Of a stretch of DNA of 64,000 bases, positions 6,928-37,051 are shown piece after piece. A program made the position numbers and the translations under genes. The stretch covers positions 32,001 to 96,000 of the IMG/VR virus record IMGVR_UViG_3300017917_002228; one strand, written 5' to 3'. Each line of letters begins with the position of its first letter. Positions within the stretch are counted from its first letter, which is position 1. The stretch comes from a virus. The notes beneath the pieces are model-generated. The model had not been told where the DNA came from. It did not search any database and was given only the letters and a program-made list of their open reading frames with translations.

Positions 6928-8643
6928 ATGATTTTGTTTAATACCATTCGTTGGAAGAACTTTCTATCTACAGGAAATAGCTTTACTGAGATTAATCTCA
7001 ATAAAGCTCCTACGACTCTAATTGTTGGTGAGAATGGTGCAGGGAAGTCAACTATGCTTGACGCCCTTTCTTTTGTTCTCTATAATAAGCCATTTCGTAA
7101 GATCAATAAGCCCCAGCTACTCAATTCGATTAACAAAAAAGATCTTCGGGTCGAGATTGAGTTTAGTATTGGGCCAGGCAAATATAAGATCATTCGTGGT
7201 CTTAAGCCTGCTGTATTTGAAGTTTACCAGAACGGTAAATTACTTAACCAGGATGCTGACAGTAAAGACTATCAGGAGGTTCTCGAGAAGCAAATTCTCA
7301 AACTGAATCATAAGTCTTTCTGTCAGGTTGTGGTGCTTGGTAGCGCGTCTTTTGTTCCTTTCATGCAGCTATCAGCACAGAATCGTCGAGAAGTTATTGA
7401 AGACCTTTTGGATATTCAAATCTTCTCGACGATGAACTCTTTGCTTAAACAGAAGATAAACGATAACAGCAGCACGCTGATGAAGGTCGAATATGATTAT
7501 GATTTGGTCTCCGAAAAAATTAAGATGCAACAAGCACACATCGATGCAATGCAGAAAAATACCGAAGAGCAGATCGCCAAGCTTAAATCCGATTTATCCG
7601 ATTACACCCAGCAGATCGACAGTGAAAAGGCTCTTGCTGACGAAAAGGATAGGGCTATACAATCTCTCCAGATCACAATTAGCGATAAAGAGTTGGTTGA
7701 AAAGAAACATGAAAAGCTTAAAGACCTCGAACGTCAACTCAAAGACAAAATTAAAAAGATACAAAACGAAACAGAGTTCTTCTCCTCTCACGATAACTGC
7801 CCTACGTGCAAACAAACTATTGATGATAGATTTAAGTGTGAAACATTATTGGAGAAAGAAAATCAGAGTCGAGAAGTATCAGACGGTATCGAAAAACTCC
7901 AGCAGGAGATTAAGGCTATCGTGGATAGAATCAGTGAGATATCTCAGATCACTTCTCAAATAACTGATTTGAATATTGAGAAAATTACTCATCATAACAG
8001 CGTGCAAGGCTTAATGAAGCAATGTAAAAAGATTGCTACAGAGATTGAAGAACTACAGAAGAAGTCTGATGATTACGCTATCAACGATGATATGATGAAA
8101 GAGCTTGACGATAAGCTTAACTCACTTTCAAACGAGAAGGCAGAACTGCTTCGTGATAAAGATGCATTACAAGTCGCTTCTATTATCCTAAAAGATACTG
8201 GCATTAAGGCTCGTATTATTAAGCAGTATGTACCTGTTATTAATAAACTAATTAACAAGTATTTGGCTGCAATGGACTTCTTCGTTAACTTTGAACTGGA
8301 TGAGAACTTCAATGAAACTATCAAGTCGAGATTTAGAGACGAATTCTCGTATGCCTCTTTCTCAGAGGGTGAAAAGATGCGTATTAACTTGGCTATACTT
8401 TTCACCTGGCGAGCTGTTGCTAAGCTTCGCAATAGCGCTAGCACTAACCTTCTTATCATGGACGAAGTATTGGACGGTTCATTAGACTCAAATGGTACAG
8501 ATGAGTTCCTAAAGATCCTAAACAACTTGACTATTGATACAAATACCTTTATAATTAGTCACAAAGTTGATACTATGTATGATAAGTTTGCAAACGTAAT
8601 CAAGTTTGAAAAACACAAAAACTTTTCGAGGATGGCAGCATGA
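6928..8643 (+). CDS. gp46: recombination ATPase subunit (Rad50/SbcC-like)
   Basis: GENGAGKS, CPTC hook, FSEGEK, LIMDE. Confidence 0.95.
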   Translation: MILFNTIRWKNFLSTGNSFTEINLNKAPTTLIVGENGAGKSTMLDALSFVLYNKPFRKINKPQLLNSINKKDLRVEIEFSIGPGKYKIIRGLKPAVFEVYQNGKLLNQDADSKDYQEVLEKQILKLNHKSFCQVVVLGSASFVPFMQLSAQNRREVIEDLLDIQIFSTMNSLLKQKINDNSSTLMKVEYDYDLVSEKIKMQQAHIDAMQKNTEEQIAKLKSDLSDYTQQIDSEKALADEKDRAIQSLQITISDKELVEKKHEKLKDLERQLKDKIKKIQNETEFFSSHDNCPTCKQTIDDRFKCETLLEKENQSREVSDGIEKLQQEIKAIVDRISEISQITSQITDLNIEKITHHNSVQGLMKQCKKIATEIEELQKKSDDYAINDDMMKELDDKLNSLSNEKAELLRDKDALQVASIILKDTGIKARIIKQYVPVINKLINKYLAAMDFFVNFELDENFNETIKSRFRDEFSYASFSEGEKMRINLAILFTWRAVAKLRNSASTNLLIMDEVLDGSLDSNGTDEFLKILNNLTIDTNTFIISHKVDTMYDKFANVIKFEKHKNFSRMAA

Positions 8644-8933
8644 GTAGAGATTACGAAAGAGGTTATAGTGACGGCTTTGAAGCCGGCTTTAAAATGGCCG
8701 AACGTTTTCATAATAATAAAATAACCGAACATAAGCAAGTTATCGCTCCTGATTATAAATGTATTAAGTGTGGTAAAGTTTTTGAAGCAAATAAAGTATA
8801 TAATTTTGTTTGTGCACATCCACAATGTCCATCTATAATGACATGTCTTACCTCAACAACAATGGGTGCAGTAGGATCATCAGAATATCCAACAACACCA
8901 CCAGGCGCAGTAGGAGCAGCAGGACCTGTATGA
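8640..8933 (+). CDS. hypothetical Zn-ribbon protein
   Basis: CIKCG...CAHPQC. Confidence 0.65.
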   Translation: MSRDYERGYSDGFEAGFKMAERFHNNKITEHKQVIAPDYKCIKCGKVFEANKVYNFVCAHPQCPSIMTCLTSTTMGAVGSSEYPTTPPGAVGAAGPV

Positions 8934-9115
8934 GTAATTTTGAAGAAGAATATAGAAACTGGCACACACGTCTTTCATATATTAAGTCAGCAGCTCGTAT
9001 TGGTGGTTGTGTAGGAGTAATTTTTATTACCCATGCTACTCTACTACCAGTAACTATTTTAGCAACATCATTTTTAGTAGCAGAAATTATTGGTATAGCA
9101 GAGGAATGGGTATAA
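8930..9115 (+). CDS. small membrane protein
   Basis: ATGA overlap with previous gene; hydrophobic C-terminal half. Confidence 0.65.
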   Translation: MSNFEEEYRNWHTRLSYIKSAARIGGCVGVIFITHATLLPVTILATSFLVAEIIGIAEEWV

Positions 9116-9372
9116 TGACTGATATCGATAAAAAAACCGGCTTTAGAGTGGGCGATTATTTTGTTTCGTTTCCTGAAGATGAATTTATTAAAGAAGATCC
9201 AGAAACAGGCGGTATGTATGTGCTTGTAGATATATTCAGACTCGACCGTGATAATAATGCGTTCAGAGTTGAACAAAGTGATATAACACCAGAGATTGAA
9301 CATCTTGTCAATACAGAAATTAATAAAATGTTGACAGCAGCAATAGCCGAGCTTGAGAAGGCAGATAAATAG
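9115..9372 (+). CDS. hypothetical protein
   Basis: TAATG coupling. Confidence 0.65.
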   Translation: MTDIDKKTGFRVGDYFVSFPEDEFIKEDPETGGMYVLVDIFRLDRDNNAFRVEQSDITPEIEHLVNTEINKMLTAAIAELEKADK

Positions 9373-9417
9373 TTTACCAGTGCCCTTCCACTGGTCAACC
9401 AAAACTAGGAGCAATCA

Positions 9418-10263
9418 ATGTCTAAAATTAAAGTAGCTGAACTGTTTTACTCACTTCAAGGTGAGGGACAGTACTTAGGAACTCCAAGCATTTTTCTAAG
9501 AGTGTTTGGATGTAACTTTCAATGCGCAGGCTTTTCTATGCCTCGCGGTCAAAAATCAGAAGAACGTTTAGCAGTAGATCCTTCTAAGTATGAACGCTAT
9601 GAGGACCTTCCTCTTGTTCACACAGGGTGTGATTCATATGCTTCTTGGGATGTGCGCTTTAAAAAGCTCTCACCAATGCTTTCTGTTCAGCAGATTGTAG
9701 ATAAGATGGAAGAACTACTACCTGATGGTAAGTTTGGTAATGATAAGCATCTTATTCTTACAGGTGGTGAACCTCTTCTTGGATGGCAGCGTTCATATAT
9801 TGATCTCTTTGAAGAGATTAAAAGTCGTAGAATGAATCTTACTCATATTACGTTTGAGACAAATGGCACTCAGCCTCTTCAAGAAGAACTTTTACAATAT
9901 CTAAACACCGGTCCTTTTGATGTGACGTTTAGTGTATCATCAAAGCTTCCTTCATCTGGTGAAGCTTGGGAAGATGCAATTAAACCGGAAATTATTAATC
10001 AATACTATTGGGCTGGAACGTTAACCTATTTTAAATGGGTTGTATCTTCGCAAGATGATTATGATGATGTTATTCGTGCTGTAGAAGAATACGGCAAGGT
10101 GTGTGATATGGATGATATTCCTGTTTACCTTATGCCTGCTGGTGGTACTACAATGCACTATGATAATAATGAGAAGTGGGTTGCTGATCTTGCTATGAAA
10201 AATGGCTGGCGTTACTCGCCGCGTCTACAAGTTCAGCTTTGGAAGAATATGTGGGGTACGTAA
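9418..10263 (+). CDS. queE: 7-carboxy-7-deazaguanine synthase (radical SAM)
   Basis: ELFYSLQGEG, LRVFGCNFQC...GCDS, LTGGEP, FETNGT, SPRLQ. Confidence 0.92.
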   Translation: MSKIKVAELFYSLQGEGQYLGTPSIFLRVFGCNFQCAGFSMPRGQKSEERLAVDPSKYERYEDLPLVHTGCDSYASWDVRFKKLSPMLSVQQIVDKMEELLPDGKFGNDKHLILTGGEPLLGWQRSYIDLFEEIKSRRMNLTHITFETNGTQPLQEELLQYLNTGPFDVTFSVSSKLPSSGEAWEDAIKPEIINQYYWAGTLTYFKWVVSSQDDYDDVIRAVEEYGKVCDMDDIPVYLMPAGGTTMHYDNNEKWVADLAMKNGWRYSPRLQVQLWKNMWGT

Positions 10264-10808
10264 TGGAATACATTGATACAAATATCACTAAATCTCCAAC
10301 AATGGAAGCAAGAATCCCTCGTACATACAAATACGTTTCAACAAAAGAATATCATGATGCATTTCCGTGCGCATATCGTCAATGGAGAGCTGATAGCCAT
10401 TGTAATTTGATTCATGGCTACAGCTTCTCTATGAAGTTTTATTTTGGTACAGATCATCTAGACGTTCGTAACTGGGTTGCTGATTATGGCGGTTTGAAAG
10501 AACTCAAGAAAGTTCTCGAAGATCAGTTTGATCATACACTACTAGTCGCTCAAGACGATCCTCATTTCGATGTATATAAGTTGCTCGAAGAAAAGAACTT
10601 GGCTAAATTAACGGTATTGCCTAAACTAGGATGTGAAGGGCTAGCTGATATGCTTTACAAATATGTAAACGGAGTCTACATTCCTGATATGTGGGGCCCT
10701 GGTGAAGCTGATCGTTTGTGGTGCTTCAGAGTTGAAGTACGTGAAACGCAGGCTAACATGGCATATCGAGTTGGTCATAGAGAATGGAATGAGGATTTGT
10801 TTGAATGA
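10263..10808 (+). CDS. queD: 6-carboxy-5,6,7,8-tetrahydropterin synthase
   Basis: SHCNLIHGY, DYGGLK, FDHTLL, VRET. Confidence 0.9.
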   Translation: MEYIDTNITKSPTMEARIPRTYKYVSTKEYHDAFPCAYRQWRADSHCNLIHGYSFSMKFYFGTDHLDVRNWVADYGGLKELKKVLEDQFDHTLLVAQDDPHFDVYKLLEEKNLAKLTVLPKLGCEGLADMLYKYVNGVYIPDMWGPGEADRLWCFRVEVRETQANMAYRVGHREWNEDLFE

Positions 10809-11494
10809 GTATATCTGAAAAGATTAAAAAAAGGATTAAAGATGCAGGCGCTCGCTTTCATGCCAATGATAACATTAGCGAATTTATTCGTGATAATGAG
10901 CGTGATGCACTCATTGAGGAACTAGCAACTAAGTTTGACGGGGTACTTCGTTCACTTATTATTGACGTTGATACTGATCCTAACTCAAAAGGAACAGCAA
11001 AGCGTCTTGCTAAGATGTATGTGAACGAGATTATGGAAGGCCGTTATTGGCCTGCTCCAGCTGTTGCAGCATTTCCTAACGATGGTTCTCACGGCACAGA
11101 TCCTTACAAGGGCATGCTCGTAGTACGTGCAGAACTAAAGTCAATGTGCTCACATCATCATCAGCCAGTTACAGGTACTGCATACATCGGTATCATTCCG
11201 AGCGGTAAAGTAATTGGATTGAGCAAATATATTCGTATTGCTCAGCATTGTGCACGTCGTGGTACATTACAAGAAGAACTGTGCGGTGATATTGCACAAG
11301 CTATTATGGAAGCAACTTCTTCTGGTAACGTAGCAGTTTACATTGAAGCTAAGCACGGATGCTGTGAGAATCGTGGTGTAATGGCTTCGAACAGTACTAC
11401 TCAAACTACAGTGCTCCATGGTATGTTCCACGATGCTGGTGTTAAATCAGAGTTCTATTCGAACATTCGACTACAGAAGTATAATTGCAGTTGA
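10805..11494 (+). CDS. folE: GTP cyclohydrolase I
   Basis: SMCSHHHQP, VIGLSK, LQE, HGC..RG. Confidence 0.95.
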   Translation: MSISEKIKKRIKDAGARFHANDNISEFIRDNERDALIEELATKFDGVLRSLIIDVDTDPNSKGTAKRLAKMYVNEIMEGRYWPAPAVAAFPNDGSHGTDPYKGMLVVRAELKSMCSHHHQPVTGTAYIGIIPSGKVIGLSKYIRIAQHCARRGTLQEELCGDIAQAIMEATSSGNVAVYIEAKHGCCENRGVMASNSTTQTTVLHGMFHDAGVKSEFYSNIRLQKYNCS

Positions 11495-11519
11495 TTTTAT
11501 TATGCTCCTATACTAGTAT
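11491..11519 (+). promoter_or_regulatory. sigma70-type early promoter inside the modification cluster
   Basis: TTGATT-N17-TAGTAT. Confidence 0.5.
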
Positions 11520-11539
11520 TAGAGGTATAGGAGATCGTT

Positions 11540-11752
11540 ATGAAAAACTTGACATCTGAACTGAAAAGCATCTACGGCGAACGTGATCTGAATAAGAAGA
11601 GAGAGCTTGCTAAACGGTTGATCGAAAATTCGCATGCGAAAACGACAACCAAAAATCAAGCTCTCTTTCTTGTTATGAATAAGTTGAGCGTAGATAAGAT
11701 TGACCGTTTTATGACAAATTATGTTTTGTCAGGTGAAGGTATGAAGGTATGA
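11540..11752 (+). CDS. hypothetical protein
   Basis: RBS AGGAG; 70 aa. Confidence 0.7.
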   Translation: MKNLTSELKSIYGERDLNKKRELAKRLIENSHAKTTTKNQALFLVMNKLSVDKIDRFMTNYVLSGEGMKV

Positions 11753-12273
11753 TCGTTAAAAAAATACCTTATGATGATGATGTTAGGAAAGCTATTTGGC
11801 CTTCCTTCAAATTATCTCTAGAAGAAAAGCATGGTAACTCAGGCGCTATCGGTCAACGAGGCGAAGAGAATGCTATTAATTTAATTCAAGAACATTTTCC
11901 TAATATGTTTCAAGTATGCTACGATCATTCAGAAGACGTAGCAGCTCAATACCGTGGTATAGACTTGACTCTTTTTCATCGACAGGGTATTATGACTGTT
12001 GATGTTAAATCAGGTAAGACTGGTCTATACTGGGATAGAGATAACAAATACTGGTATATTACTCTACGTGAAGACTTTTTTAACAAGCGCAAAAACAATA
12101 ATGCAATCATGCATGTAGGGCCTAAGGGTGATCTTTTTGCGCTCTATAATAAATCAGAAATGGAAAAGTTCTTTATTAGTAATGAAGAGCTTTTTATAAA
12201 AGATGAATATGGCTATCGTTTAAGTATGGATGATTGGCCTGACTTTATACAGCATAACCTCCGGAGATATTAA
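11749..12273 (+). CDS. putative PD-(D/E)XK nuclease
   Basis: GQRGEE helix, QYRGID, TVDVK pattern. Confidence 0.55.
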   Translation: MIVKKIPYDDDVRKAIWPSFKLSLEEKHGNSGAIGQRGEENAINLIQEHFPNMFQVCYDHSEDVAAQYRGIDLTLFHRQGIMTVDVKSGKTGLYWDRDNKYWYITLREDFFNKRKNNNAIMHVGPKGDLFALYNKSEMEKFFISNEELFIKDEYGYRLSMDDWPDFIQHNLRRY

Positions 12274-13052
12274 TGAAGATAGCACATGAGGCTCCTAAAT
12301 CTATTTTTGCACACGTCCAGCGCAAGACGGATTACGATTATGCGCTAGTGCATTTGTTTGAGACTGATCCAGTCTACTATCGCTTGTTTAAAGATGCAGT
12401 TATTCAAGGACGTGAAGTTATTCTCGATAACTCTATCTTTGAATTAGGTACAGCGTTTAGTGGCGACAAGTATTACAAGTGGATTAACGAACTTAAACCT
12501 ACTTGGTATATTATTCCAGATGTTCTAGGCGATAGAACAGCTACCATGGAAAGCATGGATAGATGGCTTTCTACTTATAAAGTAGAGGGTGTAAAGTCTA
12601 TTGGTGTTGTTCAAGGCAGCAATTATGATGAGGTTGTTAGATGTTATCTTGAACTAGCTCCTAAGGTTGATAAGGTTGCTATCTCATTTGATTATCAGTT
12701 CTTTGTTTCTGGTATTAATAACAAGTACGTAGACTATATGGCAGGTCGTATTAGTCTTATTAAACGTCTTTTAGATGAAAAAATTATTGATGAGAATAAA
12801 CCTCATCATCTACTCGGTTGCGGTCTACCTCAAGAGTTTCAATTTTATCGTGATATGAAATATACATTTATCGATAGCATTGATACATCTAATCCAGTTG
12901 TTCACGGATTAAATCGTATTCGTTATACACCAACAGGCTTGGCAGATAAAGTTCCTACAAAGCTTATTGAATATATGGACGAAGAAGTAACTAAAGATCA
13001 ACTTAAAGATATTGATTACAACATCGCAATGTTTAGAGAATTTTGCAAATGA
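12273..13052 (+). CDS. dpdA: TGT-fold 7-deazaguanine insertion enzyme (DpdA, probably DpdA3-like)
   Basis: ILDNSIFE, IPDV, GVVQG, HLLG, SIDTS align with TGT catalytic motifs; sits inside the preQ0/preQ1 cluster. Confidence 0.8.
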   Translation: MKIAHEAPKSIFAHVQRKTDYDYALVHLFETDPVYYRLFKDAVIQGREVILDNSIFELGTAFSGDKYYKWINELKPTWYIIPDVLGDRTATMESMDRWLSTYKVEGVKSIGVVQGSNYDEVVRCYLELAPKVDKVAISFDYQFFVSGINNKYVDYMAGRISLIKRLLDEKIIDENKPHHLLGCGLPQEFQFYRDMKYTFIDSIDTSNPVVHGLNRIRYTPTGLADKVPTKLIEYMDEEVTKDQLKDIDYNIAMFREFCK

Positions 13053-13573
13053 AATGGATAGCATTATTCAGCCAAACAGGAAGTGAGATTAACCGTATTG
13101 CAGAAGCATTAGGCCGTTGGCCTGACGCAGTTTTGACTAATAATCGCGATCTTAACGACTGGGAAGATTATATAGATCTTACCGAAACCTCTGTGTTTAT
13201 TTCTAATACAGAAGGTATTAATAATGCACTCCGTAAAGCAGATCGTGCATTTGTAACGCTACACGGATATCTTCGTATTATACCAGCCGATATTTGTAAA
13301 CGTCATAAAATATATAACGGGCACCCTGCTCTTATTAGTGAGTATCCAGAACTAAAAGGTAAAGATCCTCAAGAGCGAGTCTGGTTAGCAGGTAAGGAAA
13401 TTTATCCTAATATAGGTTCTGTAGTACATGAGTGTACACCAGAGCTTGATGGTGGTAAGATTATTAGTGTTGCGATGGATTTTAATCATTGCAATACTAA
13501 GCAAGAGTTGTATAATAAGCTTAAAGAGACTTCTCTCAAAGCTTGGACTTTCTTTCTGGAGACGCGTCTATGA
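13049..13573 (+). CDS. PurN-like formyltransferase (DpdN-like preQ1 formyltransferase)
   Basis: ALFSQTGS, LHGYLRII, YNGHPAL, G.VVH..T.ELDGGKII formyltransferase motifs. Confidence 0.8.
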   Translation: MKWIALFSQTGSEINRIAEALGRWPDAVLTNNRDLNDWEDYIDLTETSVFISNTEGINNALRKADRAFVTLHGYLRIIPADICKRHKIYNGHPALISEYPELKGKDPQERVWLAGKEIYPNIGSVVHECTPELDGGKIISVAMDFNHCNTKQELYNKLKETSLKAWTFFLETRL

Positions 13574-13815
13574 CTAAGAATGCTATTCGTCCTTCTCATT
13601 ATAAGGCAGACGGCTGTAAGTATGAGTGTATTGAAGTAATTGAAGAGTTGTGCGGTCTGTCTAATAATGATCGTTTTACTGATTATAATCGCTTTCAGGC
13701 ATTTAAGTACGTATGGCGTGCTGGTATGAAAGATCCTGTGTTGCAGGATTTAAAGAAGGCTAAACAGTTTATTGAATTTGCTATTGCTTACGAGGAAAAT
13801 AAAAATGTCAAGTGA
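13570..13815 (+). CDS. DUF3310 protein (T7 gp1.7 nucleotide kinase-related)
   Basis: PSHY...ECIEVI...KYVWRAG.K...QDLKKA. Confidence 0.85.
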   Translation: MTKNAIRPSHYKADGCKYECIEVIEELCGLSNNDRFTDYNRFQAFKYVWRAGMKDPVLQDLKKAKQFIEFAIAYEENKNVK

Positions 13816-14728
13816 TATTATTAATCAACTAGCCAGCGTACATCTAGGTAAAGCGGGAGATGGTAGCGTTGTCAAACCGTATGTTACTCCTGATAATATT
13901 GATCCTTCTCTTCTTGTGCCTGTGCCTCGCCATCTTAATCGTACCGGGTACGGTATTGAAGACAATAATCTACCTTTTATTGGGTATGATACTTGGAACT
14001 GCTATGAGTTTAGTACTTTAACAAATAATGGCTTCCCAGTATCCGGTGTCATTCGAATTGTATATTCTTCTTATCAACCAAATATTGTTGAGTCAAAGTC
14101 GCTTAAGCTTTATTTGAACTCGTTCAATATGCATAAGAGTGGCACTACTATTCAAGACGTTATTGAGTTTGTAGAAGACCAGATTGAAGTAGATCTTCAG
14201 GGTATTGGTATTAGTGCATCAGCATGCTTTCATGATGAGACTGCAATCGTCACTCAACCTATTCAGGGTGACTTTTTGACTCTCGAAAACTTCTGCGACG
14301 TTGAGTCTATGACGTTTGACCACTATAATGAAGATCCGGCTATTCTTGAAGTAATTGATAATCCAGACTACTATGATAGTTGGAAGTCGCATTCATTGCG
14401 TTCAAACTGTCGTGTAACTAATCAGCCGGACTGGGGTGATGTTTATATTCATATTGGTGGTGATAAGACAGTAACTCCTGAATCACTCTTGCAGTACATT
14501 GTATCGATGCGTAAAGAGAATCACTTCCACGAAGAAATTTGTGAGTGTATCTACAAGCGTCTTCTCGATACTTTGAATCCAGAAGAGCTTATGGTTGCAT
14601 GTCTCTATACTCGTCGTGGTGGTATCGATATTAATCCTGTACGTGCAAAGAGTAACAGCACTTTGTTTAAGTATGCAGGTAATCTTATTCAACCAGACTT
14701 CCTTAATTATAAGACAATGAGACAATAA
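13805..14728 (+). CDS. queF: NADPH-dependent 7-cyano-7-deazaguanine reductase (bimodular)
   Basis: ESKSLKLYLNS, SNCRVTNQPDWG, FHEEICE, YTRRGGIDINP. Confidence 0.93.
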   Translation: MSSDIINQLASVHLGKAGDGSVVKPYVTPDNIDPSLLVPVPRHLNRTGYGIEDNNLPFIGYDTWNCYEFSTLTNNGFPVSGVIRIVYSSYQPNIVESKSLKLYLNSFNMHKSGTTIQDVIEFVEDQIEVDLQGIGISASACFHDETAIVTQPIQGDFLTLENFCDVESMTFDHYNEDPAILEVIDNPDYYDSWKSHSLRSNCRVTNQPDWGDVYIHIGGDKTVTPESLLQYIVSMRKENHFHEEICECIYKRLLDTLNPEELMVACLYTRRGGIDINPVRAKSNSTLFKYAGNLIQPDFLNYKTMRQ

Positions 14729-15477
14729 TGAATCTACAACAAGCGCTTGATAAACTTCCCAACACTGATCAGAACGTAGTATCGGTCCTCTCCGGAGGAC
14801 TCGACTCTACTATTATGACTTACATTCTTGTCAAGAAATATGGCAAGGATAGAGTTTTTGCTTTATCATACGACTATGGACAGAAGCAAAAGATTGAATT
14901 AGATATGGCTCGTCGTACTTGTATGTACCTCGGCATTAGTCATAAAATTCTCGATCTAGGTATTTTAGGTGAGATAGTAAAAAATGTTTCTGCTAACATT
15001 AATGGTACTGATGTCGCGATGCCTACCATTAGAGACGTTCTAGGTGATCCTCAACCGAAAACCTATGTACCGTTTCGTAATATGATCTTGAATGCTCTTG
15101 CATTCTCTTATGCAGAAGCAAATAAAGCATCTCATGTTTTTACCGGTCTTCAAGTTCACGATGAGTATGGCTACTGGGATACTACTCAGAAGTTTGTAGA
15201 TGCAATGAATGCAGTTGCTGATCAAAACCGTACTCATAAAGTTAAGATGGAAGCACCTTTTAGTCTACTATCTAAGTATGACGAATTAAAGATTGCTAAT
15301 GAACTAGGTGGAGTTAAATTAGAATATACTCTAACATGTTATAATCCGGATGAACAGGGTCGTTCATGTGGTATGTGTCCATCATGTTCAGAACGTATTC
15401 AGAACTTTATTAAAGCTGGTATGCGCGACCCGATTCCATATTCTATAGGTATTGAATGGGAAAGGTTTGTTAAGTAA
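14728..15477 (+). CDS. queC: 7-cyano-7-deazaguanine synthase
   Basis: SGGLDST, YGQK, TYVPFRN, TCY...CGMCPSC. Confidence 0.95.
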   Translation: MNLQQALDKLPNTDQNVVSVLSGGLDSTIMTYILVKKYGKDRVFALSYDYGQKQKIELDMARRTCMYLGISHKILDLGILGEIVKNVSANINGTDVAMPTIRDVLGDPQPKTYVPFRNMILNALAFSYAEANKASHVFTGLQVHDEYGYWDTTQKFVDAMNAVADQNRTHKVKMEAPFSLLSKYDELKIANELGGVKLEYTLTCYNPDEQGRSCGMCPSCSERIQNFIKAGMRDPIPYSIGIEWERFVK

Positions 15478-16109
15478 TGTGTTCTATCACAGGGTCATTC
15501 TCTAAAGAAGTTGTAGCTGCGCTTGCGCAGCTCAACGCATATCGTGGTCAGCATTCACACTCAGTTTACGTCTTTGAACGTTTTACAAATAGAGTGTTGT
15601 ATGCGCATCGCGATCTAGGCGAACTTAATTTGGAAGATCATAATCTTCCAGATGGTTATATTGTAGTGCATCAACAAGCACCCACTACTGACAATAAGGA
15701 TGAGTCTTCGATTCATCCAGCTCAGATTAACGAAAACCTTTTGTGGCATAATGGTATCGTAAAAGCAGAAGAGATTAAAAATCTACAGAGTGAGTTAGAG
15801 TCTACTATTTCATGGGATACTAAACTAATTCTCCTCAAACTTATGCTATATAATTCAGTAAAGGACATTGATGGTACCTTTAGCTGTTTATGGTATGATG
15901 GAACTAATATGTTCCTATTTCGTAATGAGATTAGTCCAATGTTTATTGACGCGGACGGAAACATTTCTTCTACAAAGTTTCCAGGCTCTGAGCCTATCGA
16001 TCCAAACTTCCTCTGGATTTTTAACCCATCCTATCCTACACTAACAGAATACTTGGAAGAATTTAACACAGTTGAGAACCCTTATTTTTTTGCGGATGAA
16101 CAGAAATGA
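15477..16109 (+). CDS. stand-alone class II (Ntn) glutamine amidotransferase
   Basis: N-terminal MC, RG, HQQAPT, HP, HNG, DT, GTFS. Confidence 0.85.
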   Translation: MCSITGSFSKEVVAALAQLNAYRGQHSHSVYVFERFTNRVLYAHRDLGELNLEDHNLPDGYIVVHQQAPTTDNKDESSIHPAQINENLLWHNGIVKAEEIKNLQSELESTISWDTKLILLKLMLYNSVKDIDGTFSCLWYDGTNMFLFRNEISPMFIDADGNISSTKFPGSEPIDPNFLWIFNPSYPTLTEYLEEFNTVENPYFFADEQK

Positions 16110-16603
16110 TGTTGCATATTATGTCCGGTGAAACTGGATCTACACTTACTGAAGTACAAGAAGAAGATATTCAGCCTAACGCAGTTGATCTTCGTGTTGC
16201 TAAGATCTTTAAAATTAAAGAAGAAGATTTTATTATTGATAATGAAACAAAAACTCATCGTGGTTCAGAAGAGATTCATCCATACCCTTCAGGTATGTGG
16301 TATCTTAAACCAGGTACCTATGAGATTGTGATGGAGAATATTATCCATGTCGGTGAAGACGAAGCTGGTTGGGTTATTACACGATCCACTCTTAATCGTA
16401 ATGGTGTGTTTATTACTTCTGGTCTTTATGATAGTGGTTATCATGGCGTAATGGCTGGCGCTATGCATGTGACTACTGGACCGATGTGGATTAAAAAAGG
16501 AACTCGAGTAGGTCAGTTCCTTCTCTTTAAGTCACAAGCACTAAAGAAGTATGATGGTGATTATGGTATCGGCAAAGCGCACGATCAAAAGTACGGAGTA
16601 TAA
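16106..16603 (+). CDS. trimeric dUTPase / dCTP deaminase family protein
   Basis: QPNAVDLR, RSTLNR, GLYDSGYHG, RVGQ, YDGDY. Confidence 0.85.
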   Translation: MMLHIMSGETGSTLTEVQEEDIQPNAVDLRVAKIFKIKEEDFIIDNETKTHRGSEEIHPYPSGMWYLKPGTYEIVMENIIHVGEDEAGWVITRSTLNRNGVFITSGLYDSGYHGVMAGAMHVTTGPMWIKKGTRVGQFLLFKSQALKKYDGDYGIGKAHDQKYGV

Positions 16604-16605
16604 TT

Positions 16606-17676
16606 ATGGAAATTAAAATTGATATTGACTCGCTGCGTAAGCGTAAGTTGTTTGTTGCAACACCAATGTATGGTGGTAACTGCAACGGTATGTATACCCG
16701 CTCACTTTGTGATTTGACTGCACTTTGTGTTCGCTATGGTATTGAGATTCGTTCCTACTTTTTGTTTAACGAATCACTCATTACACGCGCACGCAACTAC
16801 TGCGTAGATGAGTTCCTTCGTAGTGATGCAGAACATCTCTTGTTTATCGACTCTGATATTGGATTCAATCCACAAGACGTTATTGCGATGATGGCATTAC
16901 AGACTCCGGAATCTGAATATGATGTTATTGCAGGCCCTTATCCTAAGAAGTGTATCACTTGGGAAAAGATTAAAGCAGCAATTGACAAAGGTGTTGCAGA
17001 TCAAAACCCAAATGTTCTAGAAGACTTTGTCGGTGACTTTGTTTTTAATCCTGCAATGGAACCTGGTGAGACTTCTAAAACAATTCAGCTTGATCAGCCA
17101 GCAGAAGTTCTAGAAGCTGGTACTGGCTTTATGATGATTCGTCGTAAGACATTTGAAAAGTATCTTGCTGCTTATCCTGAAATTCAGTATCGTCCTGATC
17201 ACGTCCGTACAGAAGCATTTGACGGGTCGCGTGAGATCGGAATGTATTTCCAGGCAGAAGTCGATAAGTATAGTCCTGAAAAGGACTATGAAGAAATGCT
17301 TCGTCGTATTCAGAATGGCGGTACAGTTACTGCTAATGAAGCAGCGCTTGCTATTAAGTCAACACGTGATAAGATTCAAGCTTCTACTAAGCGTTATCTT
17401 TCAGAAGATTATCTTTTCTGTCAGAACGTTCGTAAGATGGGTGGTAAGGTCTGGTTGTGTCCGTGGATGCATCTACAGCATGCTGGTACCTACGTCTTTG
17501 CTGGCAAGCTTGCAGCTCTTGCAGCAGTTGGTGCTTCTGCAACAGCAGATGCAGACTTGATTAAGAAGCATCGTGATGCTGGCAGAACACCGCATCCAGC
17601 TATTGCAATACCTAAACCGGTTAAACCAGTAGCACCAAGCTCAGAGCTCTTGAAGAAGTTTAAGACTGTTAAGTGA
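16606..17676 (+). CDS. GT-A fold glycosyltransferase-like protein
   Basis: ATPMYGG, ESLITRARN, FIDSD (DxD), GTGFMMI, SEDYLFC. Confidence 0.75.
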   Translation: MEIKIDIDSLRKRKLFVATPMYGGNCNGMYTRSLCDLTALCVRYGIEIRSYFLFNESLITRARNYCVDEFLRSDAEHLLFIDSDIGFNPQDVIAMMALQTPESEYDVIAGPYPKKCITWEKIKAAIDKGVADQNPNVLEDFVGDFVFNPAMEPGETSKTIQLDQPAEVLEAGTGFMMIRRKTFEKYLAAYPEIQYRPDHVRTEAFDGSREIGMYFQAEVDKYSPEKDYEEMLRRIQNGGTVTANEAALAIKSTRDKIQASTKRYLSEDYLFCQNVRKMGGKVWLCPWMHLQHAGTYVFAGKLAALAAVGASATADADLIKKHRDAGRTPHPAIAIPKPVKPVAPSSELLKKFKTVK

Positions 17677-17691
17677 TAGGAAATTTATATT

Positions 17692-18339
17692 ATGAAACTA
17701 AGTGAACAAACTATTAATATTCTCAAGAACTTTGCAACCATTAATCCTTCTCTGCTAGTAAAGCCTGGTAACTTTCTTAATACAGTTGCAATTAACCGTA
17801 GCATCTTTGCTAAGTGTAACGTAGAAGAAAAGTTTCCTAAGCAGTTTGCTATCTACGATCTTCCTAAGTTTCTAGGTGTGGTTTCTCTCTTTAAGGAGCC
17901 AGACCTAGAGTTTATGAAGAGCCAGCTACGTATTACTTCTGGTAGACAGTCAGTAAACTTTACCTATGCAGAACCTAATACAATTGTTGCACCTACATCT
18001 GATACGATTAAGTTTCCAACTGCAGATGTAGAGTTTGAACTATCACAGGAAGAACTGCAGCGTCTTATTCGCGCTGCAGGTATTCTTCAGTTACCTCATA
18101 TTGTAGTGACTGGTGATGGCTCAAACGTTAAAGTAGCAGCATCAGATGCAAAGAACCCTACAACAGATACATTTAGCGTTGAAGTAGGTACAACTAATAA
18201 AGAGTTTAGTACTGTGTTTAAAACAGAAAACATTCTTAAGTTGCTTTCTACTAACTATAATGTTAAAATGACAATTAAGGGTCTTGCTCAGTTTACATCT
18301 GATCAAGTTACCTATTTTGTTGCAGCAGAAAAAGTATAA
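17692..18339 (+). CDS. gp45: sliding clamp
   Basis: MKLSEQT..ILKNFATIN, FAIYDL. Confidence 0.95.
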   Translation: MKLSEQTINILKNFATINPSLLVKPGNFLNTVAINRSIFAKCNVEEKFPKQFAIYDLPKFLGVVSLFKEPDLEFMKSQLRITSGRQSVNFTYAEPNTIVAPTSDTIKFPTADVEFELSQEELQRLIRAAGILQLPHIVVTGDGSNVKVAASDAKNPTTDTFSVEVGTTNKEFSTVFKTENILKLLSTNYNVKMTIKGLAQFTSDQVTYFVAAEKV

Positions 18340-18347
18340 GGTGATAA

Positions 18348-19289
18348 ATGGAACACGCAGAATTTCTTTGGGTTGAAAAATATCGCCCAAGAAAGATTGA
18401 AGATTGTATACTCACACCGGAGCTGAAGTCAACCTTCAGCTCTTTTGTTGAGAAGGGTGAGATACCTAATTTGCTTCTGACTGGATCTTCAGGTGTTGGT
18501 AAAACAACAGTTGCACGTGCTATGTTGGATGAAATCGATGCAGATTATATTATTGTTAACGGATCGATGAATGGTAACATTGATACGTTACGTACAGAAA
18601 TTATGCAATTTGCTTCTACAATTTCTTTTAGAGGAAGTAGGAAATATGTCATACTCGACGAAGCTGATTATCTCAATGCCAATTCAACGCAACCCGCCTT
18701 ACGTAATTTCATGGAAGAATTTTCCAGTAACTGCGGGTTCATCCTTACCTGTAACTTCGTCAATCGAATCATTGAACCGCTACACTCCCGTTGCTCTGTC
18801 ATTAACTTCTCTGTCAACAAACAAGAACTTCCGCAACTAGCAGCTCGCTTCTTTAAGCGAGTAGTTAATATTCTTAATGCAGAGAATGTAGAGTTTGACA
18901 AGCAGGTAGTAGCTGAACTTATTAACAAGCATGTGCCTGATTGGCGAAGAGTATTAAACGAACTACAAAGGTATTCACATAATGGAAAGATTGACTCAGG
19001 TATCTTTGTTAACATCGGTGATGAATCGTTTAAGACACTTATCGGCTATCTCAAAGCTAAAAACTTTACAGAGATGCGTAAGTGGGTCGCGGAGAACTCG
19101 GATAGCGATAGTACTGCTTTATTTCGTAAGCTGTATGATAGCGCTTATTTACATGTTAAGCCTAACAGCATTCCACAACTAGTTCTCATTCTCGCAGACT
19201 ACCAATATAAAGATGCGTTTGTAGCTGATAAAGAAATAAATATTGTAGCTGCAATGACGCAGATTATGGTAGATGTTGAGTTTGTTTAA
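18348..19289 (+). CDS. gp44: clamp loader large subunit
   Basis: LWVEKYRP, GVGKTT, ILDEAD, SRC. Confidence 0.95.
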   Translation: MEHAEFLWVEKYRPRKIEDCILTPELKSTFSSFVEKGEIPNLLLTGSSGVGKTTVARAMLDEIDADYIIVNGSMNGNIDTLRTEIMQFASTISFRGSRKYVILDEADYLNANSTQPALRNFMEEFSSNCGFILTCNFVNRIIEPLHSRCSVINFSVNKQELPQLAARFFKRVVNILNAENVEFDKQVVAELINKHVPDWRRVLNELQRYSHNGKIDSGIFVNIGDESFKTLIGYLKAKNFTEMRKWVAENSDSDSTALFRKLYDSAYLHVKPNSIPQLVLILADYQYKDAFVADKEINIVAAMTQIMVDVEFV

Positions 19290-19507
19290 TGGCTGGGATA
19301 TCAGAATATACCACTGCAAAAGATACTAAAGTATGTGATGGATGTTCTAAACTGATATATCCAGATGAGACCTACGTTCATTCTAGATTCACACTTAATG
19401 ACCCGGGCAGCAATGTTGTCCGGTTTATTTCTGTTTTTATATGTAATGAATGCTTATTTGACTTTGATGACTTTGCTCACGGTGCTAATAACGAGATAAC
19501 TACATGA
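19289..19507 (+). CDS. small Zn-finger hypothetical protein
   Basis: CDGC...CNEC; translationally coupled. Confidence 0.6.
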   Translation: MAGISEYTTAKDTKVCDGCSKLIYPDETYVHSRFTLNDPGSNVVRFISVFICNECLFDFDDFAHGANNEITT

Positions 19508-19923
19508 ACCCTTTTGATTATGTTAATGCGATTAATTCTAATAAAGATATTATCAGAAACTCTAATAACCCTGAACTAGCAGAAAAGTTATACCAGCCCT
19601 TTATTATTAATAGAGCGCTATCATATCATATAGATACAATTCTATATGCTAATGAGATGAATATATATTCAGAAATACCCGCTATTATGCAAAATGACTA
19701 TTACCTAAATAGTATACGTCCAAAAAAGAGATATGCTAAGTGGCATAAAAAATTGCAGGATGAAGCTATTGAGGTAATACAAGAGTTTTATGGCGTTAGT
19801 ATGGCAAAAGCATTAGATATATATAAAGTGCTAACAGAAGATCAGATAGACGCCATAAAACAGAAAATATTTAAAGGCGGGAATAATGTTCAATATCAGT
19901 CAATTAGTAGAAGTAAGACTTAA
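19504..19923 (+). CDS. gp62: clamp loader small subunit
   Basis: PFDYVNAIN, YQPFIINRALS, ANEMN; synteny. Confidence 0.92.
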   Translation: MNPFDYVNAINSNKDIIRNSNNPELAEKLYQPFIINRALSYHIDTILYANEMNIYSEIPAIMQNDYYLNSIRPKKRYAKWHKKLQDEAIEVIQEFYGVSMAKALDIYKVLTEDQIDAIKQKIFKGGNNVQYQSISRSKT

Positions 19924-22398: not shown

Positions 22399-22676
22399 TG
22401 GCTAATGAAGAATTGTTTCAGAGGGCGAGTAGCTTAAAGGTGAAGCCGGCCGCTCATAACGGTCTGAGTGTAGGTTCGAGTCCTACCTCGCCCACCAGCT
22501 TTCCTAATTCAGTTAACGATCAGATTACAGATGCTGTGACACAATCACAGATTACTGATTCAGTTACACTTGAAAGAGAAAAGCCAAAACTTAAAGACAT
22601 AATTACTTTACTAATTATTAACCCTATCGCAGTTATTGCAATTATAGGAATAGTGCTCTATCATTTTTTTGGTTGA
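22398..22676 (+). CDS. possible membrane-anchored protein spanning a tRNA gene
   Basis: TAATG-coupled start; stays open through the tRNA; VNDQITDAVTQ motif; C-terminal TM helix. Confidence 0.5.
   Translation: MANEELFQRASSLKVKPAAHNGLSVGSSPTSPTSFPNSVNDQITDAVTQSQITDSVTLEREKPKLKDIITLLIINPIAVIAIIGIVLYHFFG
22423..22497 (+). tRNA. tRNA-Ile2(CAT), lysidine type likely
   Basis: Cloverleaf; GGCCG-CT CAT AA-CGGTC arm resembles alphaproteobacterial Ile2; ACCA. Confidence 0.85.
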
Positions 22677-34609: not shown

Positions 34610-34684
34610 GGACCCTTAGCTCAATGGTAGAGCAAGCGGCTTTTAACCGAGAGGTTGCAGGTTCGAGTCCTGCAGGGTTCACCA
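34610..34684 (+). tRNA. tRNA-Lys(TTT)
   Basis: Cloverleaf; anticodon stem AGCGG/CCGAG has two mismatches; ACCA. Confidence 0.85.
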
Positions 34685-34720
34685 GTTGCCTTTATCTGCG
34701 TTTAATGTTAGTATGAGAGT

Positions 34721-35008
34721 ATGATGAAAGCAGATCTTGAACTAGCCGTTAAACGTTTGCATGCAGCATATACATTGTATTATCTCAAGGCTACTCCTAA
34801 TGCCAAGATGAACGACGCTGTTGTGTATGCTAACGCATGTACTTCTGACTACGTAGACTATGCTGAAGAAGCTTGTAAAGATTATAAGTGGAAAAGTATG
34901 GCTAAGGTACTAGAGAACCAAGTTCGTATTCTTCTCGGTTTTGTAGAAGTGTACGATAAGATTATCGAACGAGATAGAGTAACTCAAAAAACGAGGTGGT
35001 CGCTATGA
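34721..35008 (+). CDS. hypothetical protein
   Basis: Promoter TTGCCT-N17-TAGTAT directly upstream. Confidence 0.65.
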   Translation: MMKADLELAVKRLHAAYTLYYLKATPNAKMNDAVVYANACTSDYVDYAEEACKDYKWKSMAKVLENQVRILLGFVEVYDKIIERDRVTQKTRWSL

Positions 35009-35087
35009 TTAGTCGCTATGATGTTGTTCTTCGTCGCTGGGAATATGGTTTTTGGCGCGGTAGTCAGTTTGTGATTGTAGGTGTAAT

Positions 35088-35360
35088 GTGAAAAGCTATA
35101 CAATTAATATTGATTATAATATCGCAGATAAAATCTTCGTCGATGTTCTTAAAGACGATTATTTAATGCTGTGTAAAGAGATAGCTCACATTAACCAGAC
35201 ACAAGAAGGTAAAAAGCCAGAAGAATTTCCTCCTCATATTAAGGAAGATTTTGAAGCTTGCCATAACAATACAGTTGCAATGGAACAGCTTTTCTTCTAC
35301 TATATGATGCCTGAAGATGCATTGAACCTTATTAATGAAGGTAATGCAATCCGTTTCTAA
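35088..35360 (+). CDS. hypothetical protein
   Basis: GTG start with AGGTG RBS. Confidence 0.65.
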   Translation: MKSYTINIDYNIADKIFVDVLKDDYLMLCKEIAHINQTQEGKKPEEFPPHIKEDFEACHNNTVAMEQLFFYYMMPEDALNLINEGNAIRF

Positions 35361-35382
35361 AGTTAGCCTATATAAAATGTAT

Positions 35383-35458
35383 TTCCCGATAGCTCAGTTG
35401 GTAGAGCATTCGACTGTTAATCGAATTGTCCCAGGTTCGAGCCCTGGTCGGGGAGCCA
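35383..35458 (+). tRNA. tRNA-Asn(GTT)
   Basis: Canonical cloverleaf, GCCA. Confidence 0.95.
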
Positions 35459-35516
35459 GTTAGGTTCGTCGCTTAATAGACGCGCGAGAGGTCACGGTTA
35501 GCCTCTCACCAATTTC

Positions 35517-35591
35517 GCCGGTGTAGCACAGCGGTAGTGCAGCGGTTTTGTAAACCGAAGGTCGGGAGTTCAATCCTCTCCACCGGCACCA
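35517..35591 (+). tRNA. tRNA-Thr(TGT)
   Basis: Cloverleaf, ACCA. Confidence 0.93.
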
Positions 35592-35596
35592 TTAAT

Positions 35597-35671
35597 GCGG
35601 GTATAACTCAGGGGTAGAGTGTCAGCCTTCCAAGCTGTTCGTCGCAGGTTCGAATCCTGTTACCCGCTCCA
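35597..35671 (+). tRNA. tRNA-Gly(TCC)
   Basis: Cloverleaf, TCCA. Confidence 0.95.
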
Positions 35672-35689
35672 ACTATCTAAAGGTGTGTC

Positions 35690-35917
35690 ATGTTTTGGTA
35701 TGTAATTCTAGTAGTGATCAATGCTAATGGTACAGTTAATGCTACCACACACTATCCAAAACTACCTCAGTATAACCATGAATCAAACTGTAAAGAAGCT
35801 GGTAAAGCTCTAGCAGACAAAGCACAACTTGAAGCAGGTACTAATAATGCTAAAGTGTTCTGGAGGTGTGAAGCACTTTCATATGAAACCGTAGCTAAAA
35901 CACTTCCGAGGACATAA
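35690..35917 (+). CDS. small exported/membrane protein
   Basis: Hydrophobic N-terminus, two Cys. Confidence 0.65.
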   Translation: MFWYVILVVINANGTVNATTHYPKLPQYNHESNCKEAGKALADKAQLEAGTNNAKVFWRCEALSYETVAKTLPRT

Positions 35918-36081
35918 TGGTTGAAGAAGATAAACTACTCAAAGTACACCACGATTGGATGCTAGATATTCTTAAACGAATGAAACAAACAATCGAATCT
36001 AAAGATGTTAACGAAACTCAAAAGCTTGCAGTGCTTGAATACTGGGTTAAGCAAGCACTTAAAGTAGAACGAGAAGACTGA
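35917..36081 (+). CDS. hypothetical protein (54 aa, not in ORF track)
   Basis: GAGGA RBS, TAATG coupling, MVEEDKLLKVHHDW... Confidence 0.6.
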   Translation: MVEEDKLLKVHHDWMLDILKRMKQTIESKDVNETQKLAVLEYWVKQALKVERED

Positions 36082-36092
36082 TAAATACTTTT

Positions 36093-36302
36093 ATGGGTAC
36101 AGCGTCTGTAGAAGCTCGACAAGAATTAGTTGATAAAATTAAGCACCGTAGTGATATTAAAATTGTAGATATCACACACTTTGGTGAAGGTTTTTATCTA
36201 GTCAAAGTTGAGTCAGATGAACTCCCAGCAGGCTATCATGGAATGCAAAGTATTTACTTTGAAGATGATAGAGTAAAGTTTAGACGAGACTTAGACGTCT
36301 AA
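36093..36302 (+). CDS. hypothetical protein
   Basis: ORF behind GATAAATA. Confidence 0.55.
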   Translation: MGTASVEARQELVDKIKHRSDIKIVDITHFGEGFYLVKVESDELPAGYHGMQSIYFEDDRVKFRRDLDV

Positions 36303-36377
36303 GCGGAGGTAGCTCAGTGGTAGAGCTTCTGCTTGCCAAGCAGACGGTCGTGGGTTCGATCCCCATTCTCCGCTCCA
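36303..36377 (+). tRNA. tRNA-Gly(GCC)
   Basis: Cloverleaf, TCCA. Confidence 0.95.
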
Positions 36378-36393
36378 TTATTACAGGTGAACT

Positions 36394-36864: not shown

Positions 36865-36871
36865 CAGTCAC

Positions 36872-36954: not shown

Positions 36955-36959
36955 TAGTT

Positions 36960-37036: not shown

Positions 37037-37051
37037 TATAAATAAGCTATT

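Follow-up and report, generated by a model that had tools for sequence, protein, structure and literature searches.

A DpdA3/DpdN-type 7-deazaguanine DNA-modification operon with four conserved companion genes in an uncultured T4-like phage

Phages can replace the guanine of their DNA by 7-deazaguanine bases, and the closest described relative of the system considered here is that of Flavobacterium phage immuto_2-6A. Liquid chromatography-tandem mass spectrometry of immuto_2-6A DNA detected no deoxyguanosine and only 7-(formylamino)methyl-7-deazaguanine (fdPreQ1), and this DNA resists restriction enzymes with G in their site (PMC10516641). It is the only cultured phage in which fdPreQ1 DNA has been demonstrated, and the function of its PurN-like protein DpdN as the formylase is a prediction for immuto_2-6A as well (Cui et al., 2023; PMC10516641). 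The DpdA3 subfamily was founded on the transglycosylases of immuto_2-6A, of the Campylobacter phage CP220 group and of Cellulophaga phage phiST (PMC10516641). Among the searchable papers, fdPreQ1, DpdA3 and DpdN are mentioned only by Cui et al., who already list uncultured phages that encode DpdN together with the whole pathway (PMC10516641). Here, we describe an operon of this kind in a 64,000-nucleotide stretch of DNA (the window, to which all positions refer unless stated otherwise) that comprises bases 32001-96000 of the 160,495-bp IMG/VR virus record IMGVR_UViG_3300017917_002228. Between a gp46-like ATPase gene and the gp45/gp44/gp62 genes, 13 open reading frames (ORFs) lie on the + strand with overlapping or abutting ends. 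These ORFs amount to a genuine 7-deazaguanine DNA-modification operon, complete and intact, of the DpdA3/DpdN type associated with fdPreQ1, a known and common system that is present here as a T4-like variant with four conserved companion genes, which are missing from the reference system or have another form there.

All seven core enzyme families of the immuto_2-6A pathway (FolE, QueD, QueE, QueC, QueF, DpdA3, and DpdN) are present in the window and adjacent, and the order DpdA3, DpdN, one small gene, QueF is common to the window, immuto_2-6A and 80 IMG/VR loci. DpdA3 and DpdN are 51.5 and 41.6% identical to their counterparts in immuto_2-6A. Because these two proteins are orthologous to those of a phage in which every G is formyl-preQ1, we consider it likely, on the strength of the sequence, that the complete and coupled operon serves to replace the guanine of the phage's own DNA with a 7-deazaguanine derived from 7-aminomethyl-7-deazaguanine (preQ1), for which fdPreQ1 is the best candidate.

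The transglycosylase (12273-13052, + strand) has 259 amino acids (aa) and no Pfam match, and was assigned to DpdA3 by identity and fold. Besides the immuto_2-6A enzyme, it resembles those of the CP220 group (~41% identity) and of phiST (25%). Its AlphaFold2 (AF2) model has a mean predicted local distance difference test (pLDDT) score of 93.7 and a predicted template modelling score (pTM) of 0.90, and the best 50 Foldseek matches of this model in the PDB are all tRNA-guanine transglycosylases (TGT; E 1.7e-8, probability 1.0), so that the protein is predicted to adopt the TIM-barrel fold of the TGT type. A sequence profile of the protein gave no meaningful match to PDB sequences. Invariant in 13 orthologs are D52 (in LDNS), D83, D133, HLLG at 179-182, and DTSNP at 204-208, which includes D204; the likeness of the four aspartates D52, D83, D133 and D204 to TGT motifs is one judged by eye only. 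A profile built exclusively from T4-like orthologs scored 249 bits for the DpdA3 of CP220 and 64 bits for that of phiST, and less than 7 bits for the DpdA2-type proteins of phages KVP40 and pf16. The preliminary description of this locus had called for placement among the DpdA subfamilies and named grouping with tRNA-specific Tgt, together with modification of tRNA only, among the outcomes that would speak against it; the profile placement is with DpdA3, PF01702 is not matched, and no Zn-binding Cys/His motif was seen in what is a bare 259-aa barrel. The isoelectric points are uninformative, as the DpdA3 orthologs are acidic (median 5.2) and the DpdA2-type proteins likewise, and they say nothing about a DNA versus a nucleotide substrate. 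In metagenomes, DpdA3 is also found fused to QueF (531-568 aa) and to DpdN (461 aa), in proteins that are among P0127 and P0129-P0132. The same set includes a 586-aa protein with an N-terminal part of 317 aa of unknown type followed by DpdA3.

DpdN, the PurN-like formyltransferase (13049-13573, + strand; ORF opens at 13043), matches PF00551 (E 8e-12), and among 50,697 phage records it matches the DpdN proteins of immuto alone. The Asn-His-Asp catalytic set (N92, H94, and D136) is invariant in 27 DpdN sequences, and more than 3,400 DpdN-like proteins are present in a metagenome protein collection. The five families of preQ1 synthesis all have Pfam matches and are likewise encoded on the + strand. 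QueE (9418-10263), the radical S-adenosylmethionine enzyme 7-carboxy-7-deazaguanine (CDG) synthase, matches PF04055, PF13353 and the QueE families of NCBIfam (E 5e-15), is 35-76% identical to QueE of five related loci and has the same position in the 80 IMG/VR loci. It is followed by the 6-carboxytetrahydropterin synthase QueD (10263-10808, ORF opens at 10239; PTPS family PF01242, E 2e-14; TIGR03367) and the GTP cyclohydrolase I FolE (10805-11494; PF01227, E 4e-38, 131 bits). Downstream of DpdN lie QueF (13805-14728, ORF opens at 13772; TIGR03138, E 9e-67), a bimodular NADPH-dependent reductase of 7-cyano-7-deazaguanine (preQ0), and the preQ0 synthase QueC (14728-15477; PF06508, E 1e-53), which has four invariant zinc-site cysteines. 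The translation of QueF contains the NADPH motif ESKSLKLY and the catalytic Cys in SNCRVTNQPDW, and since both are retained, QueF is taken to be a reductase rather than a QueF-like amidotransferase.

Inspection of start codons shows that the likely ATGs of QueD (10263), DpdN (13049), DUF3310 (13570), and QueF (13805) overlap the preceding stop codon, which indicates a single, translationally coupled operon. A scan for promoters and terminators in 8500-18500 gave results no better than shuffled sequence (41 vs. 32.6±6.5 and 7 vs. 5.4, respectively) and does not delimit the transcription unit. The arrangement is not due to chance, since the gene order repeats in the 80 IMG/VR loci, and all genes listed in the preliminary description were found on the + strand at the positions given, with family searches in agreement with that list.

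In the proposed pathway, GTP would be converted to CDG by FolE, QueD, and QueE, and CDG to preQ0 by QueC, for which the adjoining stand-alone class-II amidotransferase probably provides the ammonia. The bimodular QueF would then reduce preQ0 to preQ1, DpdA3 would swap guanine for the base, and DpdN would formylate the aminomethyl group, presumably with N10-formyl-tetrahydrofolate as the donor, as in PurN. DNA modified in this way should withstand restriction enzymes with G-containing sites. The sequences themselves establish which genes are present, that DpdA3 and DpdN are orthologous to the immuto_2-6A proteins, that the DpdA3 model has the TGT fold, and that operon and companions are conserved. 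We infer which base is made, how much of the guanine it replaces, whether insertion precedes formylation, and what the amidotransferase, DUF3310, the nuclease, and the dUTPase-fold protein do. Several points weigh against fdPreQ1 as the product. The literature contains no enzyme assay of a DpdA3 protein that we could find, and the substrate of DpdA3 is considered hard to predict (Cui et al., 2023; PMC10516641). QueE, QueD, and QueF score below the NCBIfam equivalog cut-offs, four companion genes differ from the immuto_2-6A operon, and the amidotransferase resembles the glutamine amidotransferase (Gat) domain of the archaeosine-linked Gat-QueC, which makes a second or different product conceivable. 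Finally, the assignment rests on strong orthology and not on chemistry. fdPreQ1 is nevertheless the best reading, and the earlier proposal that the phage carries fdPreQ1 or a related base is well supported by the orthology to immuto_2-6A.

The described systems share different parts of this operon. The window phage is T4-like with a B-family polymerase of the gp43 type, whereas immuto_2-6A has an A-family polymerase. Its QueC lies inside the operon together with a stand-alone amidotransferase partner that is missing in immuto_2-6A, its pyrophosphatase-like protein is of the dUTPase fold and not PRA-PH/MazG-like, and the small gene after DpdN encodes DUF3310 instead of an AAA_28 kinase. The window operon is further distinguished from that of immuto_2-6A by the lack of a phosphoribosyltransferase and by a PD-(D/E)XK nuclease gene that precedes DpdA3. 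CP220 (Firehammervirus), with 7-amido-7-deaza-2'-deoxyguanosine (dADG), and phiST, with 7-deaza-2'-deoxyguanosine (dDG), share with the window the DpdA3 family and neighbours of the kinase and nucleoside triphosphate (NTP) pyrophosphatase type. Their pathways, however, end at CDG-derived bases, synthesis in CP220 ending at CDG (Cui et al., 2023; PMC10516641), and QueC, QueF and DpdN were not found in the phiST locus. Their DpdA3 neighbours are HD or MazG proteins and P-loop kinases, where the window has the dUTPase-fold protein and DUF3310. The KVP40/nt-1-like Vibrio phages and pf16 are T4-like and have the order QueF-QueC-Gat, with 34-40% identity in Gat and 53-63% in QueC, but their transglycosylases of ~440-460 aa are unrelated to DpdA3 at the profile level (of the DpdA2 type in nt-1), and they lack DpdN. 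Less than 0.2% of G was found to be modified in nt-1 (PMC6884629). Gat-QueC, known from phage 9g and archaea, likewise ties a class-II glutamine amidotransferase functionally to QueC. In the window the two proteins are separate, QueC comes first, and QueF and DpdN are present, so that the amidotransferase is likely to supply ammonia rather than to form archaeosine. More distant are the T4 hydroxymethylcytosine (hmC) system, with the dCTPase gp56, gp42 and the deoxynucleoside monophosphate (dNMP) kinase gp1, and gp1.7 of phage T7, where a pyrophosphatase, a base modifier, and a kinase-type protein also occur together. This is an analogy only, as the window proteins are not homologous to gp56, gp42, and gp1, and the DUF3310 protein of the window corresponds to the C-terminal domain of gp1.7 alone.

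How common the system is was examined in IMG/VR, where a search with a DpdN alignment found at least 584 DpdN-encoding stretches (a single DpdN query gave none). The census comprises the best 80 of these at least 584 loci and the window, with genes labelled by profiles from curated examples; many of the loci are near-copies, so the counts are not independent. The gene order is nearly fixed (variable members in parentheses): QueE, (phosphoribosyltransferase), QueD, FolE, (70-aa protein), (nuclease or other small protein), DpdA3, DpdN, (AAA_28 kinase or DUF3310), QueF, QueC, amidotransferase, (dUTPase-fold protein), glycosyltransferase (GT)-like protein, and gp45. DpdA3 is directly upstream of DpdN in 69 of 73 loci, the amidotransferase follows QueC in 51 of 55, and a member of the nuclease superfamily precedes DpdA3 in 40 of 70. 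The slot after DpdN, scored in 81 loci, holds AAA_28 in 52, DUF3310 in 25, and neither in one; the pyrophosphatase slot, scored in 52, holds a dUTPase-fold protein in 45, PRA-PH in three, and neither in four. The suggestion that the extra genes define an extended pathway not yet described thus holds in part: four of them (amidotransferase, dUTPase-fold protein, DUF3310, and nuclease) are conserved together with the module, but the glycosyltransferase belongs to the phage backbone, and the system is neither rare nor new in kind, given the list of Cui et al. (2023) and the at least 584 IMG/VR loci.

The amidotransferase gene (15477-16109, + strand) encodes a stand-alone class-II (Ntn) glutamine amidotransferase of 210 aa that begins with Met-Cys and has no Pfam match. 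Its start overlaps the QueC stop (TAATG), the two being separate ORFs. Across 32 sequences, C2, R23-G24, HNG at 91-93, and G133 are invariant, and D132 is found in at least 90%; the profile matches the glutaminase domain of GlmS (E 7e-4). Homologs adjoin QueC in KVP40 and in Pseudomonas phage pf16, and among the listed matches of the search, ~40 from other Vibrio phages overlap an annotated QueC gene. No longer amidotransferase-QueC fusion protein was found in this search, which is weak evidence. Since immuto_2-6A has no amidotransferase, the protein is not required for fdPreQ1 as such. As QueF and DpdN are invariably encoded with it, we infer that the protein is a QueC subunit that supplies ammonia.

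The slot between DpdN and QueF is occupied in the window by an 81-aa DUF3310 protein (13570-13815, + strand, ORF opens at 13543; PF11753, E 1e-11). The domain is the same as that in residues 122-184 of T7 gp1.7, and the window protein aligns to gp1.7 residues 116-186; it does not have the full architecture of gp1.7, which comprises ~196 aa with a Cys-rich N-terminal part followed by DUF3310. Its AF2 model is poor (pLDDT 66). According to a passage in PMC11897194 that cites Tran et al. (2012), T7 gp1.7 phosphorylates dGMP and dTMP. Fusions tie DUF3310 to the pathway: DpdN::DUF3310 proteins occur in metagenomes, and phage RHph_I1_18 encodes a 422-aa DpdA3-like::DUF3310 protein, followed by a dUTPase-fold and a GT-like protein (L013:9808-11592). 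Only FolE and QueD are recognizable near this fusion, together with a macro-domain protein, and RHph_I1_18, a cultured T4-like rhizobiophage, may carry an uncharacterized 7-deazaguanine. The AAA_28 kinase, which fills two thirds of the slots after DpdN, is orthologous in immuto_2-6A, CP220 (gp057), and the T4-like loci (31-39% identity). In a tree of DpdA3 and DpdN from 56 distinct loci, the content of the slot changed at least four times, and at least two of these changes are forced by well-supported branches. The window belongs to a clade of 12 DUF3310 and two AAA_28 loci, and as the latter two have both genes, the kinase is not simply replaced by DUF3310. A small phosphoribosyltransferase (PF00156) is encoded between QueE and QueD in L009, L011, and L001 and in six IMG/VR loci. 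It occurs only alongside the AAA_28 kinase (six of 40 loci, compared to none of 16 loci with DUF3310 alone), and could serve in the salvage of guanine after its release or in the ribosylation of the deazapurine base.

In every DpdA3 context examined, a kinase-like gene is located beside or near DpdA3, and a gene of the NTP pyrophosphatase type is present in all of them except that of Bacillus phage BSTP12, where two neighbours were scanned. The contexts comprise HD::AAA_33, DpdA3, and AAA_28 in CP220; MazG, AAA_18, and DpdA3 in phiST; PRA-PH, DpdA3, DpdN, and AAA_28 in immuto_2-6A; an AAA_18/33-type kinase near DpdA3 in Chryseobacterium phage MA9V-3; and a weak P-loop protein near DpdA3 in BSTP12. 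In Vibrio phage D479 (L015:4606-6495) and Aeromonas phage Ahp1 (L018:5554-7537), a DpdA3-like protein of 285-290 aa, a T4-type dNMP kinase (PF21448), and a dUTPase-fold protein are encoded by adjacent genes, and FolE lies a few genes upstream. These cultured phages are not named in the 7-deazaguanine literature examined. Cui et al. (2023) nowhere mention a kinase (PMC10516641). AAA_28, a T4-type dNMP kinase, MazG, and a phosphoribosyltransferase were not found in the complete genome of the window phage.

The dUTPase/dCTP deaminase (DCD)-fold protein (16106-16603, + strand) resembles deoxynucleoside triphosphate (dNTP) pyrophosphatases (PF22769, E 5e-17, 62.9 bits). Its best match in the PDB is the dUTPase 9w59, and its GLYDSGYHG aligns with motif III (G-x-x-D-x-x-Y-x-G). 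The position aligned to the TLEL Glu of Mycobacterium tuberculosis DCD (2qxx) is not Glu, and as this deaminase residue is missing, the protein is taken to be of the pyrophosphatase type. Five clear relatives are present in the phage database (RHph_I1_18, Vibrio D479, Vibrio Bakedbeans, Aeromonas Ahp1, and Chryseobacterium MA9V-3), and in all five genomes a DpdA3-family protein is encoded within ~5 kb of the dUTPase-fold gene. In the IMG/VR loci L047, L055, and L095, which are T4-like, a PRA-PH/MazG-like pyrophosphatase replaces the dUTPase-fold protein (L055 and L095 also lack the amidotransferase), and the PRA-PH/MazG-like type is also found beside DpdA3 in immuto_2-6A and phiST. Because the two types share one slot and PRA-PH/MazG proteins accompany DpdA3 in immuto_2-6A and phiST, a predicted NTP pyrophosphatase activity seems to be part of the DpdA3 system. 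The gene directly upstream of DpdA3 (11749-12273, + strand) encodes a NERD-type protein of the PD-(D/E)XK nuclease fold (PF08378, 23.2 bits at a cut-off of 22.1), in which the motif E...ID...DVK (GE, ID, and DVK) is conserved in at least 80% of 33 sequences. A blastp search, which found it in only one other locus, had suggested a sporadic insert; this was rejected by profile comparison, as the window protein and the proteins in the same slot elsewhere form one superfamily (hhalign 76-100%). By analogy to the cytosine-specific nucleases of T4, one may speculate that the nuclease spares G-free DNA.

Other products or functions of the operon have to be weighed against fdPreQ1 DNA. If the amidotransferase acted as the Gat of Gat-QueC, preQ0 would be converted to archaeosine (G+), and the DNA would contain G+, alone or mixed with fdPreQ1. 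This would agree with the class-II motifs and with the location directly after QueC with overlapping stop and start, and a precedent is given by phages 9g (Gat-QueC, with G+ in its DNA, dG+) and CAjan (QueC, with preQ0 in its DNA, dPreQ0), which differ only in the Gat domain (PMC10516641). In all loci, however, QueF and DpdN are intact in the same operon, which argues for a flow of preQ0 to preQ1, and four related loci are without the Gat gene but retain the rest of the pathway. Moreover, a Gat homolog adjoins QueC in KVP40, and in its relative nt-1, which presumably has the same Gat gene, only a trace of dG+ is present and was traced to ArcS2; archaeosine in the DNA of the window phage thus appears rather improbable. 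Far less credible still, and close to negligible, is a function in queuosine modification of host tRNA or in folate and purine metabolism instead of DNA modification, with FolE, QueD, and PurN as auxiliary metabolic genes. FolE, PTPS-like, and PurN-like genes do occur in marine phages as auxiliary metabolic genes (phrog_9240 is so annotated), and the genome has 23 tRNA genes, but the transglycosylase groups with the DNA-linked DpdA3 and not with tRNA TGT, and it shows neither a PF01702 match nor a visible Zn-site motif. DpdN, an ortholog of the immuto_2-6A enzyme, always adjoins DpdA3, and QueA, QueG, and QueH were not named by family scans of the ORFs between gp46 and gp45.

A more serious alternative, although we consider it unlikely, leads to the same product by another route, in which the exchange of the base takes place before replication, on free deoxyguanine nucleotides, comparable to T4 hmC. 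The dUTPase-fold protein would convert dGTP to dGMP, DpdA3 would swap guanine for preQ1 on the mononucleotide, DpdN would formylate it, and after rephosphorylation by a kinase (DUF3310 or a host enzyme) it would be incorporated by the T4-type polymerase; in other DpdA3 systems, MazG, PRA-PH, or HD would be the dGTP pyrophosphatase. Such a route would account for the 100% replacement in DpdA3 phages, compared to 25-32% in the DpdA1/DpdA4 phages CAjan, 9g, and HVTV-1 (PMC10516641), and the occurrence of DUF3310 in gp1.7, a dGMP/dTMP kinase, also counts in its favour. It is also in line with the recurrence of kinase-like and pyrophosphatase-type neighbours of varying families across the DpdA3 contexts, the repeated switching of the slot after DpdN, the exchange of the dUTPase-fold protein for PRA-PH in three loci, both DUF3310 fusions, and the bare barrel without a visible Zn-binding motif. 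On the other hand, all characterized enzymes of the TGT family use polynucleotides, and the absence of a P-loop dNMP kinase, MazG, and a phosphoribosyltransferase from the genome would make the phage dependent on the 81-aa DUF3310 protein or on host kinases. AAA_28 and DUF3310, which coexist in two loci, are not simple substitutes, and genes of nucleotide metabolism commonly cluster in large phages for general reasons. Phosphates of dADG were reportedly not found in CP220-infected cells by Crippen et al. in 2019, which counts against this route as well. Insertion after replication is also what Cui et al. (2023) propose (PMC10516641). If the base were exchanged in the nucleotide pool after all, the 100% replacement of G would be explained, the 81-aa DUF3310 protein, a stand-alone gp1.7 domain, would be the kinase step in the window phage, and the PD-(D/E)XK nuclease would be free to destroy host DNA that contains G.

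The remaining gene at the right end of the operon encodes the GT-like protein (16606-17676, + strand; weak GT matches, phrog_1574). Proteins with 49-61% identity to it are encoded by Stenotrophomonas phage DLP_6, Sinorhizobium phages phiM12, phiM7, and phiN3, Caulobacter phage Cr30, and Rhizobium phage RHph_I1_18. In DLP_6, the gene immediately precedes gp45, and the 15-kb region examined around it contains no deazaguanine gene; phiM12 and Cr30 have the GT-like protein and gave no DpdA3 or DpdN match, and in L007-type genomes the gene lies far from the module. A role of this protein as a DNA-sugar step was rejected, as the gene belongs to the backbone of the phage lineage (DLP_6, phiM12, and Cr30). 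In a related 145-kb phage (L005:15258-17174), an intein with a LAGLIDADG endonuclease (PF14890, PF03161) interrupts the GT-like gene before gp45, and a NUMOD3 gene lies beside it. In the first half of the operon, a conserved 70-aa protein (11540-11752, + strand) has no Pfam match, a weak match to phrog_12669, and homologs in the same slot of many related loci. The operon is flanked on the left by the gp46-like recombination ATPase (6928-8643, + strand; SMC_N, AAA_23), which is 45-60% identical to gp46 of related loci, and on the right by the gp45 sliding clamp (17692-18339, + strand; PF09116), the first gene of the gp45/gp44/gp62 block (17692-19923, Pfam matches). Two ORFs between gp46 and QueE, at 8640-8933 (97 aa) and 9007-9372 (121 aa), have no family match and no homologs in the related loci, which mostly have peptide deformylase there, and they may not be real genes.

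The direct terminal repeats of the 160,495-bp record show that it is a complete genome. A megablast search of the whole region against the 50,697 phage records gave no matches. The preliminary description of the phage as T4-like is confirmed by Pfam matches to the replication genes gp46, gp45, gp44, gp62, and gp43 in a T4-like order, and by a polymerase that shares 52% identity with its counterparts in T4-like cyanophages. Several backbone genes have their nearest relatives in phages of Alpha- and Gammaproteobacteria. Beyond the end of the window, at genome bases 128255-128631, the phage encodes a permuted two-piece transfer-messenger RNA (tmRNA) with the tag ANDNFAPRLALAA and an adjoining tRNA-Cys. 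The match to the Rfam model alpha_tmRNA (RF01849) covers the full length of the model (118 bits, E 2e-33), and an alphaproteobacterial host, as first suggested, is plausible from this alpha-type tmRNA but not demonstrated. ARAGORN predicted 23 tRNA genes in the whole genome, a large set for a 160-kb phage, and 22 of these lie inside the window in four groups (137-1139, 22423-22497, 34610-37514, and 43744-46216).

The at least 584 IMG/VR loci indicate that the module, with its fixed set of companions, is widespread in uncultured T4-like phages. With restriction-resistant DNA, phages of this kind would tend to escape methods that presuppose normal G. The companions are candidates for addressing whether G is replaced on DNA or in the nucleotide pool, where the nitrogen used by QueC comes from, and what the common phage domain DUF3310 does. 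The genome containing the window is a useful natural case here, being complete and without the P-loop kinase that is seen beside DpdA3 elsewhere, and the system would be of greater interest if its companions were to show that the base enters the DNA via the nucleotide pool.

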